A DNA stretch of 64,000 bases from NCBI GenBank assembly GCA_964016885.1, contig OZ024741.1, forward strand, positions 75,392,001 through 75,456,000. Reading direction: 5' to 3'. The stretch's first letter is position 1. Each line of letters begins with the position of its first letter. Below are positions 5,547 to 30,457 of this stretch, piece after piece. A program made the position numbers and the translations under genes. The notes under the pieces were generated by a model. That model did no database searches and was not told the DNA's origin. It saw only the letters and a list, made by a program, of their open reading frames with translations. Source of the stretch: Eledone cirrhosa. Lineage: Eukaryota.

Positions 5547-5980
5547 TATATATATATATATATATATACGTGTTTATATATGTGTGCATATGTGTGTCTG
5601 TGTGATTATATATGAGCATGTGTTTATGGTAATCTACATTATAAATGCACCCAGTATACTCTGTAACGTGGATAGTGATATAAAGGGCACCCAGCCATAA
5701 AAAACCTGCCAAAGAAAGTATTGGGAGGATTCTTCATGCACAACTTCCCTAGTGTTGGTACCGTGATAAAATGCACTAGGTAGAGCATGGGAACATATGT
5801 AATCAAAGTTCATGCTCTCTGAAGAAAACAATAGGGAGGGTTAACTGAAGGCAAGGAGTGGTGAGGGAAGAAAGGAAGCACAGTATACAAGTTAATAATT
5901 GCCTGTAAAACTGTTACGTTTAAACGGAAAAAATGAAACGAAATTTCATTTCTCACTCTTAGTACGGCTGTTACTTAAAT

Positions 5981-6541
5981 ATAAGTATGTATACGTACAT
6001 ACATATATGTATACAGACGTACAGTAGTATGTATATATATATACATACATGCACACATATATATATGTACGTATGGATTCACCGAACATTTATTATAATG
6101 CTCGGTGTGTTTGTAAACAAACATCCCGAATTAAACCGTACAGTGTCTAGCAGCCATCGTTGCTCATTTGTTCAACACTGACAAAGGAACGCTGTACTAG
6201 TTTCAAGCTTATTAGCTATCGTCAGCAACGTATACCTTGCTGCCAGATGGTTGAAAGTCTGAAAGTATATACTTTCCTTATTCATATTAACGGCTGAGCA
6301 GCCTAATTTGCATATCGAGTGAGTTATTGGCCGGGGTACCGAAAACGATAAACGTGTTTACAAACACACCGAGCATTATAATAAATCTTCGGTGAATCCA
6401 TACGTACATATATATATATGTGCATGCATGTATATATATATATACATACTACTGTACGTCTGTATACATATATGTATGTACATATATGTATACATATATG
6501 TACGTCTGTATTCATATATGTATGTACGTATACATACTTAT
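5981..6541. repeat. Long inverted repeat (arms ~5981-6118 and ~6356-6541) enclosing a hammerhead motif; fold-back PLE-tail module
   Basis: gtacgtatggattcaccgaa...tgtttgtaaac is the reverse complement of gtttacaaacacaccgag...gaatccatacgtac. Confidence 0.85.
6189..6231 (-). ncRNA. Minimal type I hammerhead ribozyme, apparently intact
   Basis: Minus strand ACGTTG-CTGACGA-T-AGCT-AATA-AGCT-T-GAAA-CTAG-TA-CAGCGT: stem I of 6 bp, CUGANGA and GAAA cores, stem II, palindromic stem III, GUA cleavage triplet. Confidence 0.8.
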
Positions 6542-7639
6542 GTTACATTTAGTTATCCTATAAATAATTTAAATTTTAAAAAAGCTATTAAAATATAATT
6601 TTCAAAGTAAAATCTTTGATCAACTTTACAGTAGGAGTGTTGAGGAAGTATATTCTCTACAAGAGGGTGATAGTTCAAAGTCTTTGGGGAAAATCTGTTT
6701 TAAACTATTGGAAACATTTGTCTTTCCAGTGAAGCTATATCAATCTTATTAAAACTTCTTGCAGTTATCTGTTTTTCTCCACTATTTTCTCATTGTAACA
6801 CATAATTAATTTAAACTGTATAATTCTAATATGAAATTTTAAAAAATGGTCTGTTTTCCAATTCAACATAGTAGTAAATCATTAGAAGGAAGTAAATACT
6901 AAAACACTATCCCAAATAATTGTTTCTACTTTTGGTACAAGGCCACGCAACTACCCAGTGTATTACTGGTACTTTATTTTATCGACCCCGTAAGGATGGA
7001 ATATTGCATTAATAAATTATTACCTGTAATTAATCGCTGAATCATAATTCCTTCAGAATTATATATATAAGCCATTGTTTTATAGATGGAATAAGTGATA
7101 GTTGGTTTATTTATCAAACTTTAATGAAGCTATATTTGTGGATTATATATATGTGTGTGTATGTTTTATTTTCTACTACAAAATTGGCATTTACAACAGG
7201 AATTTCATTATTTTAAACTAATTATGTTATATAATCAGCCTATCAACACATTTTAAGGTAGCTGTATTGGAAAGTAGTTATATAACATAATTGGCTGAAA
7301 ATAATGAAACACATAGTAAATGGTTATTTTGTGATAGAAAATAAAATATACTCTCAGATTGAGTTTTCTCCACAAATTTGGATATTCTAAACCCCTACTC
7401 TGCCTCCCCTCTCTCTCCACATACAAATATTCAGTACAATGTTATCTTATTTTCTACTAGCCTGCATTAACCAGCATTCATCCATCTTATATTGTCTGTG
7501 AGCTCAAGTTAACAATGGAGATTATAGCCTCACTATATGGATTTTACATTTTGATATAGAACCCCATCAACATTTACTTTTCTATTCATCCTCTTGTCAG
7601 TGAGAAGTAAGAAAAATTTAACATTGCAGCAAAAAATGT

Positions 7640-14282: not shown

Positions 14283-17200
14283 TATATATACATAAATTTC
14301 GATATGATGGATGGACTAAGGAATTTCTGGAGAGCCTGAAGAATCTGGACACTCGAAGATAATGCCAAAGATAACGACAAATTCACCTCATACTGCCGGA
14401 CGAAAGGGCAAGGCCCCCTCCTCTTTCTTGCAGCCGCGGATGGCCAACATAACCCCAACCCCATCCCCATCACCCCTCCCTGCGCCTCACCCACCAAACG
14501 CAATCCAAAACTTCAGAGTTGGTACCATAAATGTAGGCACCTTAAAAGGCCGCTCTAACGAGGTTGTAGAAATGCTTCAACGTAAGGTCGTTGATGTTTG
14601 CTGTATCCAAGAGATCAGGTGGAGGGGCGGGTCTGCTAAATTCATTGTGGGTAAAAAACGATGCTATAAACTTTTCTGGGTGGGAAATGACAATGGGCTG
14701 GGTGGGGTAGGAATCATGTTAGCAGAAAAATGGGTCGATAAGATAATAGACGTAAATAGAGTGAATGATAGAATAATTAAAATAAGACTTGTTCTAAATA
14801 GAACTACTGTGACAGTAATATCTGCGTACGCACCCCGATCCGGACTGCCTGGCGCTATAAAAGACAGATTCTATGAGACACTGATGCTCACTACCTCCCA
14901 AATAACCGACAGTGACTATATAATTATTGCTGTTGACCTAAATGGTCACATTGGACAACATTGTGACGGTTATAATGGAATCCACGGAGGCTATGGGTTT
15001 GGTACTAGGAATGAGGAAGGCTCCAGAATCCTGGAATTCTGTGATACAAATAACCTAACTATCTGTAACACTAACTTCAAAAAATGAGACAATCACTTGA
15101 GCACCTACAGATCAGGGGAACATACCAGCCAGGTAGATTATATCCTTACCAGAAGACGTGACAGAGTGTCTGTTGTAAACACTAAATCCCTTTCGACAGT
15201 AAGGAAGAGCATTTAGAGTCGTACAATATAGAGGAATAGTGGGAATTCCTGAAAGCAAACCTGTTGATGGCGGCAGACAAAGTCTGTGGCTGGAGCAGGC
15301 CTATAGGCAGGAGGGGAGTAACATGGTGGTGGAACAGTAAGGTGGAGGAGTCAATTAAGGCCAAAAAGCAGGCTTGGAAAGTATGGCGGGATGGGGGAAG
15401 TAGAGAAGACTATCAAGTGGCCAAGAGGAAAGCTAGGAGACAAGTGTACTTCGCAAGAAGGAAAGCAGAGGAAAGAAAGTTCAAGCATGTTCTACAACGC
15501 GAGGACCAAAAACGTGAGGTGTTCAGGATTGCTAGGCAATGTGTCAAGGAAAACCGTGATATTGTCGGGGAGAAGTGTGTAAACTTGCCATCACTGACGC
15601 TGATAAGAAGGTAGCTTGGAAGTGTCACTACGAAAGGCTACTAAATGAGGAGAATAAATGGGAGAAAGACAGTCTGCCCCACATCGACCCAATAGAGGGA
15701 CCAGCAGTGTTAGTCGAAGGTAGTATAATAAGTAAGGCAATCAAAGATATGAAGACGGGTAAGGCGGCTGGGCCTTCGGAAATAGTTGCTGAAATGCCGA
15801 AAGCTTCTGGAACCGTGGGACACACTATGGTCACCCGGATAGTAAACCAAGTCATACAGAATGGGGTTGTTCCGAAGGACTGGCGTAGCAGCATCATCAT
15901 TAACTGCTACAAGGGTAAAGGAGATGCCCTAGATCGGAGTAACTATAGAGGCATTAAATTAATCGACCAGGTCATGAAGGTCACAGAAAAAGTAATAGCG
16001 CAACTAATCAGAGAGAGAATTGATCTAGATGAAATGCAGTTCAGGTTTGTGTCAGGTAAAGTACCACAGACGCTCTTTTCATTGTACGACAACTGCAGGA
16101 GAAGTACCTAACTAAAAGTAAACCCCTATACTTAGCTTTTGTCGACTTGGAGAAAGCCTTCGACAGAGTCCCCCGTTCCATTATCTGGTGGGCTCTTAGA
16201 AAACTAGGTGTTGATGAATGGCTTGTGAGAGCTATACAAGCCATGTATAAAGAAACAGTCAGCAAGGTTAGAATTAACAACGAATATAGTGAAGTGTTTA
16301 GCGTAAAAGTTGGTGTTCATCAGGGCTCCGTTCTTAGCCCCCTACTATTTATTATTGCCCTTCAGGCTATAACAGTGGAGTTCAAGACTGGCTGCCCATG
16401 AGAACTCCTATACGCAGATGATCTAACGCTCATAGCTGAATCAATGGCCGAACTAGAGAAGAAACTCCAAACATGGAAGCACGGCCTAGAATCAAAAGGC
16501 CTTAAAATTAACCTGTCTAAGACTAAAGTTCTAGTTTGTAGGAAGGAAAATAGGGCACCGGTCCCATCCGGGAAGTGTCCATGCTCAGTGTGTAGGAATG
16601 GAGTAGGTAGAAACTCCATTTTATGTCCCAAAAGCAAAGAATGGGTGCATAAAAGATGTAGTGGGATCACAGGTAAGCTAACTAAGAACATAGATTTTAT
16701 ATGTGGCCGGTGCTCTGGTGCAATAAGTAGCAGCAAGTGCCCACAGAATACTAGCTCACTCCATTGCACAGATGGTTCTATACAAATAGTGGACAGCTTC
16801 CGTTACCTGGGTGACAAAATCAGCAGTGGGGGAGGGTGCTCTGAAAGTACAGTAGCTAGAGTCAGAACTGGATGGAAAAAGTTCAGAGAGCTTATACCAC
16901 TATTAGCCGCTAAAGGGTTCTCCCTAAAAATGTATGATGCCTGCATACGAACAGCAATGTTGCATGGCAGTGAGACCTGGGCATTGTGTGCAGAGGATAT
17001 ACGCAGACTGGAGAGGAACGAAGCTTGCATGCTCCGCTGGATGTGTAATAGTAATATACGTGAACGGCAAAGCATAAACGAACTAAGGGAAAAATTAGAA
17101 ATAAGAGGGATCAGATGTTTTTTACTCGAGAGAAGACTACGTTGGTATGGTCACGTGATGCGCATGAAAGACGACAGCTGTATAAAAAAGTGCAGGGCAA

Positions 17201-17718
17201 TAAAAATAGACGGTAGCCACGGAGTAGGCAGACCCAGAAAAACCTGGGATGACTTGATAAATTCCGACCTCACACACTTACACCTCTCCAAGACAATGTC
17301 ACTTGACCGAGACCTTTGGAGCTACACAGTAATAGAGAAGACCCACCTTACCTAAGTACAAAGTGAAACCTACTACAGTCAGTAGGCACCTCTAACTAAA
17401 TGCACCCCCGTCCCACTACCCCCACCCAATGCACACAACCCCTTTCAATGTAAAGTTATGTTGGTACCACAACATCCAGCCTGAAACAAATGAGGTCGTG
17501 TAGGTGTCACGACAAAAAAAAACACACAGTCCATGCTGTAATGTGGCCGTGTAAATGTAGCTGTAAATGTGGTTGGTGTTAGGAAGGACATCCAGCCGTA
17601 GAAAACCCGCCAGACGGTCCTATGTGAGCAAGACAACCACTCTTGCCTCAAGTGGGAAAACTCCCGTCCAAACCCATGCAAGCGTGGAATGTGGATATTA
17701 AACGATGATGATGATGAT
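14283..17718 (+). mobile_element. Near full-length RTE-clade LINE (APE endonuclease + RT + PHD finger), pseudogenised
   Basis: EN ORF 14362-15087 (GTINVGTL, CCIQEIRW, SAYAP, DLNGHIG); RT pieces 15264-16401 (NYRGIKL, FVDLEKAFD, QGSVLSP, YADD); 16444-17355 C-terminus; internal deletion near 15183; (GAT)n tail. Confidence 0.95.
14362..15087 (+). pseudogene. RTE apurinic-like endonuclease domain
   Basis: Exo/endo/phosphatase motifs in the ORF; premature TGA. Confidence 0.9.
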
Positions 17719-19299
17719 ACATATATATGTGTGTGTGTGGGTGGGGAGGGGTGAGTATACATGCACATACGTAAACTTGGAAAATTTTAGGTGTCATCAG
17801 GTTTAAAAATAACAAAGACATAATGTCTGTTATAATGGCACCCCTCACCCCGATGATTCTAAGGAATCAGTGATCAATATATATAGTATACATTGGAATT
17901 ATCTGACATTGGCATTATCAGTAAGAAAATTTTAGATAAAATCATCCCACAGATTAAACACAAGATATACCTTAAACAATGGGGAAATACGGGTGAAGTT
18001 ATTGAATGGTTGAAAGATATCAAGAATAACAAGGACAAAAAATGTATTCAATTTGATATCAATTCATACTACACCTCTATTTCCCCTATCCTATTAAATA
18101 AGGCACTAATCATGGCCATGAACAATAGCGACCTGACTAGAACCCAGATTGATGTCATCCTTGCGGCCCGTAAAACCATAATCACCTTTGAAGACCAATT
18201 ATGGACCCGCAAGGATACGCACAACAACTTCGACATAACCATGGGGTCTAGTGACTCGGCGCAGGTCACTGATTTGGTCGGCCTATACTTACTTAATGAA
18301 ATCCATAAGGACCTTCCATACCTCAACGGTGGTTTGTACCGCGACGATGCACTTCTACTTATAGAATATAAAAAATTCAATATAGAAAGAACTAGAAAAC
18401 TATTGCATAGGACATTCAAAAACTATAACCTTAGTATCACCATGGACAAAAACACTAAAAACGTTAACTTCCTAGACGCCACACTATACCTAGACTCAAA
18501 GATATATACACTTTTCCATAAGCCTAACGAAAAACTCATTTACGTAGATACCAAGTCTAACCACCCTAGATCAGTATTAAACTCTATCCCTAAGGGGGTA
18601 TCCAATATAATCTCTAATCTATCCTATGACGCAAACATATTTAGCAAAAACTCGCAATATTATAATCAAGCATGAGCTAGATCTGACCATAATATAGAGA
18701 TTGAGTTCCTACCTACGAAAACACATAGCTACAACATTATCTCGCACAATATGTTCATGAGGAAACCTAGTAATAAGAATAGCATCCACACACACACTAA
18801 AACGGAGGATGCCATCAAAAGTAACCCTTACCACAAAACTACCGTAGTACCTTAAGAGGAAACAACACACCAAACACTAAAAACAAAAATAGAAGAAGAA
18901 ATAATACATTTTTCAACCCTCCTTTCAACCTAAACGTCTCTACCAACATACCTAGGGCTTTCTTCTCACTACTAGATAAAAACTTCCCTCTAGAACACAA
19001 GTACCATAACCTTTTAAACAAAAACACTATTAAAATCTCCTACTCTACGACGCCTAACATAGCATACCACATAGCTAGTAGCAATAAAAGAAAAATTAGT
19101 TCTTGCTTCCAACAAACTAAATCGCAGCAGGGGGTAAACCCTCAAAATAACTCTGTAGCAAGTAACCCTAGTAACGGCAGTAATAGTAGTAATAGCACTA
19201 GTATAAGCAATAACACCGGGGACGACAACCCCCATATCCAAAATCCTATAGCTACCACCCGGACTTCTACACATTTTAACCAACAGACTAGCACCCAGA

Positions 19300-19733
19300 A
19301 TAATTGTAACTGTAGAGCAAATAGAACCTGCCCTTTAGATAAGAAATGCTTAATCAAGGATATCATATACTCATGCACCGTCACAACTAGCAACTCTTCA
19401 GAATCCTATGTAGGCTCCACGTCTAGCTGCTTCAAAACCAGGTATAATTCGCACATCCACTCATTCAAAAAACACAGTCTAGCCAACTCCACCTCACTAT
19501 CTAGCTACATACACTATCTAAAAACTAAAAATAAATCTTACACACTTAAATGGGAAGTGATAGGTAGCGCGACTTCGTACAAACCACCTAATAAATTTTG
19601 TAATCTCTGTCTACTAGAGACCCACACTATTATCTTCTCTAACCATAACCTACTTAACAAAAAATCTGAAGTGTTCGCGACTTGCCAGCACCGCTTCACA
19701 CATTCCTTCCAAAACTTTAAACCCTATATATAG
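19300..19733 (+). pseudogene. GIY-YIG endonuclease of PLE (open frame without start codon, absent from the ORF track)
   Basis: Manual translation NCNCRANRTCPLDKKCLIKDIIYSC...YVGST...FKTRYNSH...FCNLCLLE...LLNKKSE. Confidence 0.9.
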
Positions 19734-21250: not shown

Positions 21251-21646
21251 TAGTCAGGCTCGATCGATACAGATCAAACCTTGAGCTGATCAATCGCGAA
21301 ATGCGTGTCACACCACAATAAATGTAATGATAATTTGGATATCCAAACTGAACCTGAACCGATAAGGTCTAGTTTCTTGGGTACGTCAACATTTATAAAA
21401 CAAATTTTGTATTTTATCTGATGAGAGCGTACCAGAATTTTGGTACCCTTGAAATATATATAATAAAATAAATATGGTTTTATAAATATAGTTTCCATTT
21501 ATTAATATCATTGATATATATATATATATAATGTTGACGTACCCAAGAAACTAGACCTTATCAGTTCAGTTTGGATATCCAAATTATCATTACATTTATT
21601 GTGGTGTGAGACGCATTTCACGATTGATCAGCTCAAGGTTTGATCT
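21251..21646. repeat. PLE-tail module with ~120-bp inverted repeat (21271-21392 / 21530-21646) around a hammerhead and (TA)n
   Basis: agatcaaaccttgagctgatc...gggtacgtcaacatt versus aatgttgacgtaccc...gctcaaggtttgatct. Confidence 0.88.
21411..21469 (+). ncRNA. Minimal type I hammerhead ribozyme, apparently intact
   Basis: ATTTTAT-CTGATGA-GAGcGTACCAGaattTTGGTACcCTT-GAAA-TATATA-TA-ATAAAAT; predicted cut after 21462; AATAAA overlaps the 3' strand. Confidence 0.82.
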
Positions 21647-28062: not shown

Positions 28063-30457
28063 ATCATCATCATCATCATCATCAACGTTTAACGTCCGTG
28101 TTCCACGCTTGCATGGGTTTGGACGGGGGTAGTCCCACTTGAGGCAAGAGTGATTGTCTTGCTCGCATAGGACTGTCTGGCAGGTTTTCTACAGTTGGAT
28201 GCCCTTCCTAACACCAACCACATTTACAGTGTGGGTCTGGGAGATTTTTACCGTGTTGCCTACACGGCCACATTACAGCGTGGACTGTGTGTTTTTTTGT
28301 CGTGACACCTACACGATCTCATTTGTTTCGGCCTCGATGGCGCGGCACCAACATAACTTTACATAGAACGGGGTGGTGTGGATGGGGTGGGGGTGGTGGT
28401 GGTGGGACGGGGTGTATTTTGTTAGAGATGCCTACTGGCTGGAGTAGGTTTTACTATATATTTAGGTAAGGCGGGTCTTCTCTGTTACTGAGTACCGCCA
28501 AAGGTCTCGGTCCAGTGACATTGTCTTGGAGAGGTGTAAGAGTGTGATGTCGGAGTTTATCAGCTCGTCCCAGGTTTTTCTAGGTCTGCCTATTCCGTGA
28601 CTACCGTCTATCTTTATTGCCCTGCACTTTGTTATACAGCTATCGACTTTCATGCGCATCACGTGTCCATACCAACGTAGCCTTCTCTCGAGTAAACAAC
28701 ATCTGATCCCTCTTATCTCTAATTTTTTCCTTAGTTCGTTTATGCTTTGCTGTTCACGTATATTACTGTTACACATCCAGCGGAGCATGCAAGCTTCGTT
28801 CCTCTCTAGTCTGCGTATATCCTCTGCACACAATGCCCAGGTCTCACTGCCATGCAGCATTGCTGTTCGTATGCAGGCATCGTACAACCTGCCTTTCATT
28901 TTTAGGGAGAACCCTTTAGCGGCTAATAGTGGTATAAGCTCTCTGAACTTTTTCCAACCAGTTCTGACTCTAGCTACAGTACTTTCAGAGCACCCTCCCC
29001 CACTGCTGATTTTATCGCCCAGGTAACGGAAGCTGTCCACTATTTCTATAGAACCCTCTGCGCAATTGAAAGAGCTAGTATTTTGTGGGCACTTGCTGCT
29101 ACTTATTGCACCAGAGCACCGGCCACATGTAAAATCTATGTTCTTAGTTAGCTTACCTGTGATCCCACTACATCTTTTATGCACCCATACTTTGCATTTA
29201 GGACATAAAATGGAGTTTCTACCTACGCCTTTCCTACACACCGAGCACGACCATTTCCCAGAAGGGACCGCCGCCTTGTTTTCTTTCCTACAAACTAGTA
29301 CTTTGGTCTTAGCCAGGTTAATTTTAAGTCCTTTTGACTCTAGGCCGTGCTTCCATGTTTGGAATTTCTTCTCTAGCTCGGCCATTGATTCCGCTATGAG
29401 TGTCAGGTCGTCTGCGTATAGGAGTTCCCATGGGCAGCCTGTCTTGAACTCCTCTGTTATAGCCTGAAGGGCAATAATAAATAGTAGTGGGCTGAGAACA
29501 GAGCCCTGATGGACGCCAACTTTTACGCTAAACTCTTCACTATATTCGTTGTTAATTCTAACCTTGCTGACTGTTTCTTTATACATGGCTTGTATAGCCC
29601 TCACAAGCCATTCGTCAACGCCTAGTTTTCTAAGAGCCCACCAGATAATGGAGCGGGGGACTCTGTCGAAGGCTTTCTCCAAGTCGACAAAAGCTAAGTA
29701 GAGGGGTTTACCTTTAGCTAGGTACTTCTCCTGTAGTTGTCGTACTATGAAAAGAGCGTCTGTGGTACTTTTGCCTGACACAAACCCGAACTGCATTTCA
29801 TCTAGGTCAATTCTCTCTCTGATTAGTTGCGCTATTACTTTTTCCGTGACCTTCATGACCTGGTCGATTAATTTAATGCCTCTATAGTTACTCCTATCTA
29901 GGGCGTCTCCTTTACCCTTATAACAGTTAACGATGATGCTGCTATGCCAGTCCTTCGGAACAACCCCATTCTGTACGACTTGGTTAACTATGCGGGTGAC
30001 CATGGTGTGTCCCACCGTGCCAGATGCCTTCAGCATCTCAGCAACTATTTCCGAAGGCCCAGCCGCCTCCCGTCTTCATATCCTTGATTGCCTTACTTAT
30101 ACTCCCCTCGACTAACACTGCTGGTCCCTCTATTGGGTCGATATGGGGGAGACTGTCTTTCTCCCATTTATTCTCCTCATTTAGTAGCCTTTCATAGTGA
30201 CACTTCCAAGCTACCTTCTTATCAGCGTCGGTGATGGCAAGTGTGCCATCGTCGTTTAGTACACACTTCTCCCCGACAATATCACGGTTTTCCTTGACGC
30301 ATTGCCTAGCAATCCTGAACACCTCACGTTTTTGGTCATCGCGTTGTAGAACATGCTTGAACTTTCTTTCCTCAGCTTCCCTTCTTGCTAAGTACACTTG
30401 TCTCCTAGCTTCCCTCCTGGCCACTTGATAGTCTTCTCTACTTCCCCCATCCCGCCA
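28063..30457 (-). mobile_element. Young 5'-truncated RTE LINE
   Basis: ORFs 30038-30424 and 28462-30036 joined by one frameshift; 3' UTR and (ATC)n tail; 5' end abuts (TA)n. Confidence 0.96.
28462..30036 (-). CDS. RTE reverse transcriptase with C4HC3 (PHD-like) finger, 524-aa open frame of a truncated element
   Basis: NYRGIKL, QFGF, FVDLEKAFD, QGSVLSP, YADDL, CSVC..CPKC..HKRC..CGRC, FRYLG, RRLRWYGHV. Confidence 0.85.
   Translation of the reverse strand: MLKASGTVGHTMVTRIVNQVVQNGVVPKDWHSSIIVNCYKGKGDALDRSNYRGIKLIDQVMKVTEKVIAQLIRERIDLDEMQFGFVSGKSTTDALFIVRQLQEKYLAKGKPLYLAFVDLEKAFDRVPRSIIWWALRKLGVDEWLVRAIQAMYKETVSKVRINNEYSEEFSVKVGVHQGSVLSPLLFIIALQAITEEFKTGCPWELLYADDLTLIAESMAELEKKFQTWKHGLESKGLKINLAKTKVLVCRKENKAAVPSGKWSCSVCRKGVGRNSILCPKCKVWVHKRCSGITGKLTKNIDFTCGRCSGAISSSKCPQNTSSFNCAEGSIEIVDSFRYLGDKISSGGGCSESTVARVRTGWKKFRELIPLLAAKGFSLKMKGRLYDACIRTAMLHGSETWALCAEDIRRLERNEACMLRWMCNSNIREQQSINELRKKLEIRGIRCCLLERRLRWYGHVMRMKVDSCITKCRAIKIDGSHGIGRPRKTWDELINSDITLLHLSKTMSLDRDLWRYSVTEKTRLT

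Follow-up and report, generated by a model that had tools for sequence, protein, structure and literature searches.

A long inverted repeat that encloses a hammerhead motif, in the 64,000-nucleotide stretch of the Eledone cirrhosa genome analysed here (the window), is very probably one dispersed insertion, inverted in the manner of a Penelope-like element (PLE), of a high-copy, non-coding hammerhead repeat, a non-LTR retrozyme. We assign the retrozyme to PLE mobilisation because its ends match the published PLE signature of an inverted copy plus a tail, and it was likely moved by the RT-endonuclease of such an element. Retrozymes are a known class; what is new here is the strict pairing of a long with a short insertion end and the match to a U6-like promoter. 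Neither the mobility nor the transcription of animal retrozymes is settled, and this family offers thousands of insertion junctions with a PLE signature. Published papers are cited below for the passages that bear on each point.

The insertion, its repeat family and the hammerhead

The inverted arms described in an earlier note on this DNA are present as described (6032-6119 and 6355-6442, 88 nt, 97% identity). That note had placed the start of the element at 5981; the element continues 60 nt further left, and the additional unpaired stretch is its diagnostic tail (Table 1). The TA-rich sequence running out of the arms, with extensions that reach about 5979 and 6544, belongs to the monomer and is not target DNA. 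Both arms do contain AATAAA, at 6380-6385 (plus strand) and 6094→6089 (minus strand), but it lies 110-170 nt inside the element ends, within a predicted hairpin, and we therefore rejected it as a terminal tail signal. The proposal of two back-to-back PLE tails was right in that an element 3′ end bounds the insertion on either side, each at one of two preferred start sites, as happens in PLE insertions. They are, however, ends of a non-autonomous 428-nt monomer and an inverted partial copy, not tails of coding PLEs, and the one real tail lies outside the coordinates that the proposal had covered.

Table 1 Features of the insertion (positions in the window; phases counted from the cleavage site)
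Feature	Position	Strand	Remarks
Whole insertion: full monomer plus inverted partial copy, both 3′ ends outward	5921..6541	.	
Complete monomer	5921..6354	-	434 nt, with 6 nt of terminal redundancy beyond the 428-nt unit
Inverted 5′-truncated arm	6355..6541	+	phase 76 to ~215; stops at the short (tail-less) site
Tail of ~56 nt between the short and long 3′ end sites	5921..5978	-	at one end only
TA-rich segment, monomer-internal, predicted long hairpin	5980..6070	-	
Possible 6-bp target-site duplication TGTTAC	5912..5917, second copy 6541-6546	+	read from sequence
Type I hammerhead motif	6189..6231	-	6-bp helix I; U·U + 4-bp helix II; palindromic ACUAGU helix III
Motif around the octamer, a match to the −78 element upstream of host U6, U6atac and RNase MRP genes	6302..6314	-	
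TATA-like box GTATATA	6266..6272	-	42 nt after the upstream element
T6 run, candidate Pol III terminator	5928..5933	-	putative function

Read from 6354 to 5921, the monomer is 98% identical to units of tandem arrays and runs from phase 269 to phase 274. The inverted arm includes a ~36-nt internal duplication of TA-rich sequence. The left copy of the possible target-site duplication sits 3 nt outside the left end of the insertion, and the flanks are AT-rich without (TA)n. We infer that the short and long 3′ end sites bounding the tail are reverse-transcription start sites; the window copy has its long end at 5921 and its short end at 6541, and so obeys the pairing rule described below.

The exact 31-nt hammerhead core has 10,046 matches across the 3.0-Gb genome, compared with 0 for a reversed-pattern control, and a relaxed core has 28,570 matches compared with 10. 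A DNA search with the window unit returned mostly copies that cover one arm and the spacer only, plus a tandem array; in the array, 25 cleavage-site motifs are spaced 425-431 nt apart. Subfamilies are 422-500 nt long, with divergence down to about 77%, and in the array and the 80 loci sampled below, units adjoin further units only and never an RT or GIY-YIG open reading frame (ORF). Predicted circular folds of monomers from three subfamilies are strong (z −7.6 to −11.2, 40 shuffles each), a strength owed in part to TA-rich palindromes. Judged by its short non-coding tandem monomer, single type I hammerhead and self-paired predicted fold, the family would be a non-LTR retrozyme. Whole inverted insertions are duplicated a few kb apart at two loci on the contig that we sampled for insertion ends.

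The minus-strand hammerhead had been called intact, with a GUA site. Its position and triplet are exactly as claimed, but two of its helices are weakened. Read from 6231 to 6189, it comprises the core CUGACGA...GAAA...UA, a helix I of ACGUUG and CAGCGU, and the GUA triplet at 6197-6195, with predicted cleavage between 6195 and 6194. Helix II is closed by a U·U mismatch instead of a canonical pair (10.1-11.1), with U present in 77 of 82 copies at each position, and helix III is a one-base-pair palindrome. No Rfam family reached its gathering score, and the hits at E≤10 were TA-rich miRNA noise that included no hammerhead. Taken alone, the motif is no more stable than shuffled sequence (z −0.1 to −0.6); the case for a hammerhead therefore rests on the family. 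The core is conserved in other copies, the point on which the earlier note had staked its reading: among copies picked by motifs outside the core, it is intact in 73 of 82 (after 5 of 87 had been set aside as truncated or too divergent) and in 52 of 62. Pair 3 of helix I is U-G in 64, G-U in 52, A-U in 31 and C-G in 3 of 156 copies, and is thus paired in 150. Variation between subfamilies falls at N7, loop II and helix I, and contigs from three public runs carry variants at these same places and none at conserved core positions. No covariation was seen in helix II, because it is nearly invariant. The covariation at helix I pair 3 places the hammerhead under constraint.

In the folding model, helix III forms a 6-bp self-duplex at −6.8 kcal/mol, and closing it within a monomer costs 5.4. 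In multimeric transcripts, the hammerhead is thus predicted to cleave chiefly in dimeric form. Such an arrangement, with self-paired helix III, is described in PMC4209133 and PMC7229834, and a U·U variant in the latter had weak activity as a monomer and stronger activity as a dimer. With its single hammerhead, the window insertion would by prediction be a poor cleaver, and by itself it could not give rise to a unit circle. A 2026 preprint (bioRxiv 10.64898/2026.07.22.740005) reports that 8 of 9 predicted Xenopus retrozyme dimers were uncleaved in vitro, and therefore the activity of a predicted hammerhead cannot be assumed. Three more hammerhead-like motifs, of other families, lie in the window at 1233 (+), 21418 (+) and 27989 (−), with helix I of 9, 8 and 5 bp, respectively; two of them have a palindromic TATATA helix III loop.

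A candidate U6-like promoter

The octamer noted earlier near 6306 is ATTTGCAT, at 6306-6313. The sense strand of the monomer reads TATGCAAATTAGG there, then GTATATA. Five host promoters (three distinct U6, MRP and the top-scoring U6atac) share TATG(C/G)(A/T)AAT(T/G)AG at −77 to −79 and GTATA(T/A)A at −31; other U6 and U6atac loci, which were not used, are without the element at that position, some being interrupted by an insertion and others pseudogene-like. With leave-one-out matrices, the window motif scores 15.6-18.8 bits, where the host genes reach 10.7-17.6. For four of six monomers, 0 of 500 shuffles matched the motif score, and for two monomers with a variant motif 1 and 22 of 500 did, the latter monomer scoring only 10.5 bits. 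The motif together with a TATA box was matched by 0 of 200 shuffles in all six. Motif position 10 carries G instead of A in roughly one copy in four, the 10.5-bit monomer among them. No match to the host distal element was seen in the monomer.

Because the host TATA-to-start distance is 30 nt, the predicted start site falls at ~6241, 47 nt before the cleavage site and just before an extended helix I. Next to the long end, phases 262-281 hold a cluster of T runs that includes a conserved T4 run at phases 278-281 (6345→6342 in the upstream redundancy of the window copy). The absence of T4 runs from the predicted transcript was rejected as evidence for Pol III, as 460 of 1000 shuffles were alike. 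From these sequence comparisons, we lean slightly towards each monomer carrying an upstream-type (type 3) Pol III promoter that would start at this site, with read-through into the following unit allowing a transcript to take its external promoter along.

A serious contender, which we put somewhat below an even chance and which concerns only the promoter part of our explanation, keeps the same element and mobilisation but takes the octamer and TATA match to be incidental or a Pol II signal, with read-through from arrays or host genes giving the transcripts. The spacing between upstream element and TATA box is 42 nt in the monomer versus 46-48 in all five host genes, and is thus 4-6 nt short of a PSE-TATA distance described as fixed (PMC6004067). 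In RNA, the motif is predicted to form one arm of a hairpin, a role that might account for its conservation, and one subfamily has a weaker motif. Moreover, the promoter of newt satellite 2 is of the snRNA type and served by Pol II (PMC2220036). Insertion 5′ ends show no sharp stop at the predicted start: those 26-57 nt upstream of the cleavage site number 13 of 84 and 12 of ~67, a mild excess in an interval chosen post hoc, and similar clumps occur elsewhere. An incidental match, however, sits poorly with a similarity that extends past the octamer on both sides, with a motif that lies on the sense strand with the TATA box in the right order, and with the absence of the −78 motif from three host U2 promoters and nine PLE loci. 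The pairing hairpin arm, furthermore, varies between subfamilies at two positions opposite invariant motif bases.

If a type 3 promoter is indeed present, it could be part of a broader history, which we advance tentatively and hold to be marginally short of an even chance. The repeat would have captured a host U6-type external Pol III promoter and kept it through PLE copying of read-through multimers or circles, at ~30,000 copies. Just as tentatively, with the PLE enzyme priming two target strands from two RNA sites, the family might be regarded as a 'type 3 promoter SINE' of Penelope. SINEs cannot normally propagate a gene-external Pol III promoter; the promoter here, if real, would give a retroelement a route to carry one. 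snRNA promoters are described as external and absent from SINEU (PMC4494074). The promoter comparison also gives a candidate U6-type consensus for the host, useful for small-RNA expression tools.

Several further observations concern these promoters and starts. In the 8-nt-deletion subfamily, whose predicted start is 39 nt before the cleavage site, several multi-unit copies (four loci) have a 5′ end 34-37 nt before that site. A (C/T)TCCCTT element near −260 to −285 is common to the host U6 promoters and similar in two U2 promoters, and host U2 has a different proximal motif. Some units of the U6 tandem array (three loci) have a SINE-like insertion at the TATA box, with the upstream element displaced by ~190 nt.

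Insertion ends and a likely link to Penelope-like elements

To characterise insertion ends, we took the first 100 exact-core matches on one contig and removed 6 overlapping ones, which gave 80 loci with 81 insertions. For the arm with the hammerhead, the 3′ end fell at phase 256-278 in 39 insertions, at 196-226 in 35 and elsewhere in 7, such that 74 of the 81 arms end within two intervals spanning 54 of 428 phases. The two sites, at phases ~274 (long) and ~216 (short), are ~56 nt apart and are mostly followed by (TA)n; no insertion end has a poly(A) tail. Fold predictions place the short end within a hairpin loop and the long end immediately past the next hairpin. The 5′ ends are scattered, with 0 of 87 and 2 of 70 at the cleavage site, the latter two belonging to one duplicated block. 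Thus, insertion ends are not set by the hammerhead. With no 5′ pile-up at the cleavage site, a cleaved linear monomer was rejected as the main template; cDNAs pass this site, and the templates would therefore be uncleaved multimers or circles.

An inverted arm adjoins 39 of the 81 insertions. Where both ends could be classified (13 of the 39 had an unclassified end), 25 of 26 inverted insertions paired a long with a short end, one had two long ends and none had two short ends. A larger, overlapping set, divergent subfamilies included, was recounted by motif without alignment and yielded 29 of 34 long-short pairs (p=2e-5), with anchors that miss some variants. This rule suggests that priming of the two target strands begins at different sites on the RNA. 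We propose that a PLE enzyme would nick both strands of an AT-rich target. On an RNA that is multimeric or circular, one nick would prime cDNA at the downstream site and the other at the upstream site. Joining of the two truncated cDNAs at their growing ends would then leave an inverted repeat of which one side alone has a tail.

These features resemble those of EN+ PLEs. Their insertions are described as having 5′ truncation, partial tandems, an inverted upstream copy, (TA)n targets and a 30-40-bp tail, often at one end only (PMC8557442). For Poseidon of Anolis, the PLE protein cuts and extends both strands of AT-rich DNA, and two internal RNA sites that bound the tail serve as starts, independently of hammerhead cleavage (PMC11167929). 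Our family shares the truncation, the partial tandems, the inverted upstream copy, the one-end tail, the AT-rich or (TA)n targets, the two internal start sites and ends that are not set by the hammerhead. It differs in having no ORF, a longer tail (~56 nt) and no sequence match to the PLE pLTRs examined, and its long/short pairing rule is quantified here.

It is improbable that the monomer is instead the detached pseudo-LTR (pLTR) of an autonomous PLE, its copies being 5′-truncated insertions of the coding element. Every insertion feature is indeed a PLE feature, and Xenopus retrozymes match PLE pLTRs in the 2026 preprint. However, copies longer than one unit run into another monomer and never into an ORF (80 loci and the 25-unit array). 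The host genome has many GIY-YIG loci (10,596 candidates), and in the 50 regions searched (30 + 20, of at least 150 listed) none had the monomer as a pLTR beside RT/GIY-YIG and none held a matching autonomous PLE. A negated pattern for related hammerheads gave 2 matches as possible partners, both unrelated.

A young RT+GIY-YIG PLE family in the host genome (five loci) has a hammerhead ~390 nt after its ORF, also with U·U and a palindromic helix III. It has TA targets, two 3′ ends ~50 nt apart that define a tail, and a tail-less inverted arm, and it has no sequence match to the monomer. RT frames of 844-1096 aa at three further host loci are candidate active PLEs. Within the window, two open frames at 17887-19730 (+), upstream of the hammerhead-like motif at 21418, are presumably PLE-like, judging by RT/GIY-YIG motifs; they gave no Pfam match and only E~0.1 against a PLE ORF. 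Open frames with RT and PHD-finger similarity at 28465-30075 (−) and 16402-17352 (+) are likely LINE fragments.

Inversions are common in non-LTR retrotransposition, and later rearrangement of an insertion, or twin priming of the L1 type at random internal positions, could in principle have produced the inverted structures. As to a shared RNA molecule behind both arms, divergence between arms has a median of 3.7%, compared with 9.8% between an arm and a typical copy, and in 9 of 49 pairs the arms were as close to each other as to the nearest outside copy, a control biased towards outside copies. Neither process accounts for long-short pairing in 25 of 26 insertions, nor for the lack of poly(A) tails, and we consider both very unlikely. 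A MITE or foldback DNA transposon with TIRs, or a self-cleaving hairpin moving as a whole inverted unit, as the earlier note had entertained, would fit the long inverted repeat and possible 6-bp duplication at this locus, but is already refuted, to within a negligible chance, by the variable junctions: the inner junction and arm lengths differ in every insertion. In addition, 42 of the 81 lack an inverted arm, one end differs systematically from the other and the arrays run head to tail.

Comparison with known systems

Non-LTR retrozymes of metazoans are described from coral, mussel and axolotl (PMC7229834) and from vertebrates (the 2026 preprint). Our family shares with these accounts an AT-rich, non-coding tandem monomer with one type I hammerhead, an occurrence as monomers, dimers and arrays, a self-paired fold and a co-occurrence with PLEs. 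Its monomers of 422-500 nt lie above the ~170-400 nt first described. The axolotl HHR_Amex1 has the same palindromic 1-bp helix III and HHR_Amex2 the same U·U at the base of helix II (PMC7229834), whereas both weakening features are joined in one ribozyme here. PLEs were named as candidate movers of retrozymes in 2020 (PMC7229834), and the 2026 preprint, in whose described sampling there are no molluscs, ties vertebrate retrozymes to PLEs. In the relevant passages of these two papers, the link is drawn from co-occurrence and pLTR homology and not from insertion-end signatures, whereas here it is drawn from the ends; the same passages mention no promoter, whereas a candidate is present here. 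Our literature search found no account of the window retrozyme family, no PLE end signatures in retrozymes and no type 3 promoter in a retrozyme, although supplements, subscription papers and repeat databases may hold one.

Newt satellite 2 and the schistosome repeat SM-alpha are hammerhead tandem repeats with a small-RNA-type promoter of their own. The promoter of the schistosome hammerhead repeat is tRNA-like and gene-internal. Whereas the newt promoter is of the Pol II type mentioned above and the schistosome repeats are transcribed by Pol III (PMC6765202), the candidate here would be of a different kind, an upstream element plus TATA box resembling those of the host U6, U6atac and MRP genes (type 3 Pol III). 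With MITEs and foldback elements, the family shares its short, non-coding form and, at the window locus, an inverted repeat. It differs from them in having no fixed termini or junction, and in its asymmetric ends, tandem arrays and retro-type truncation.
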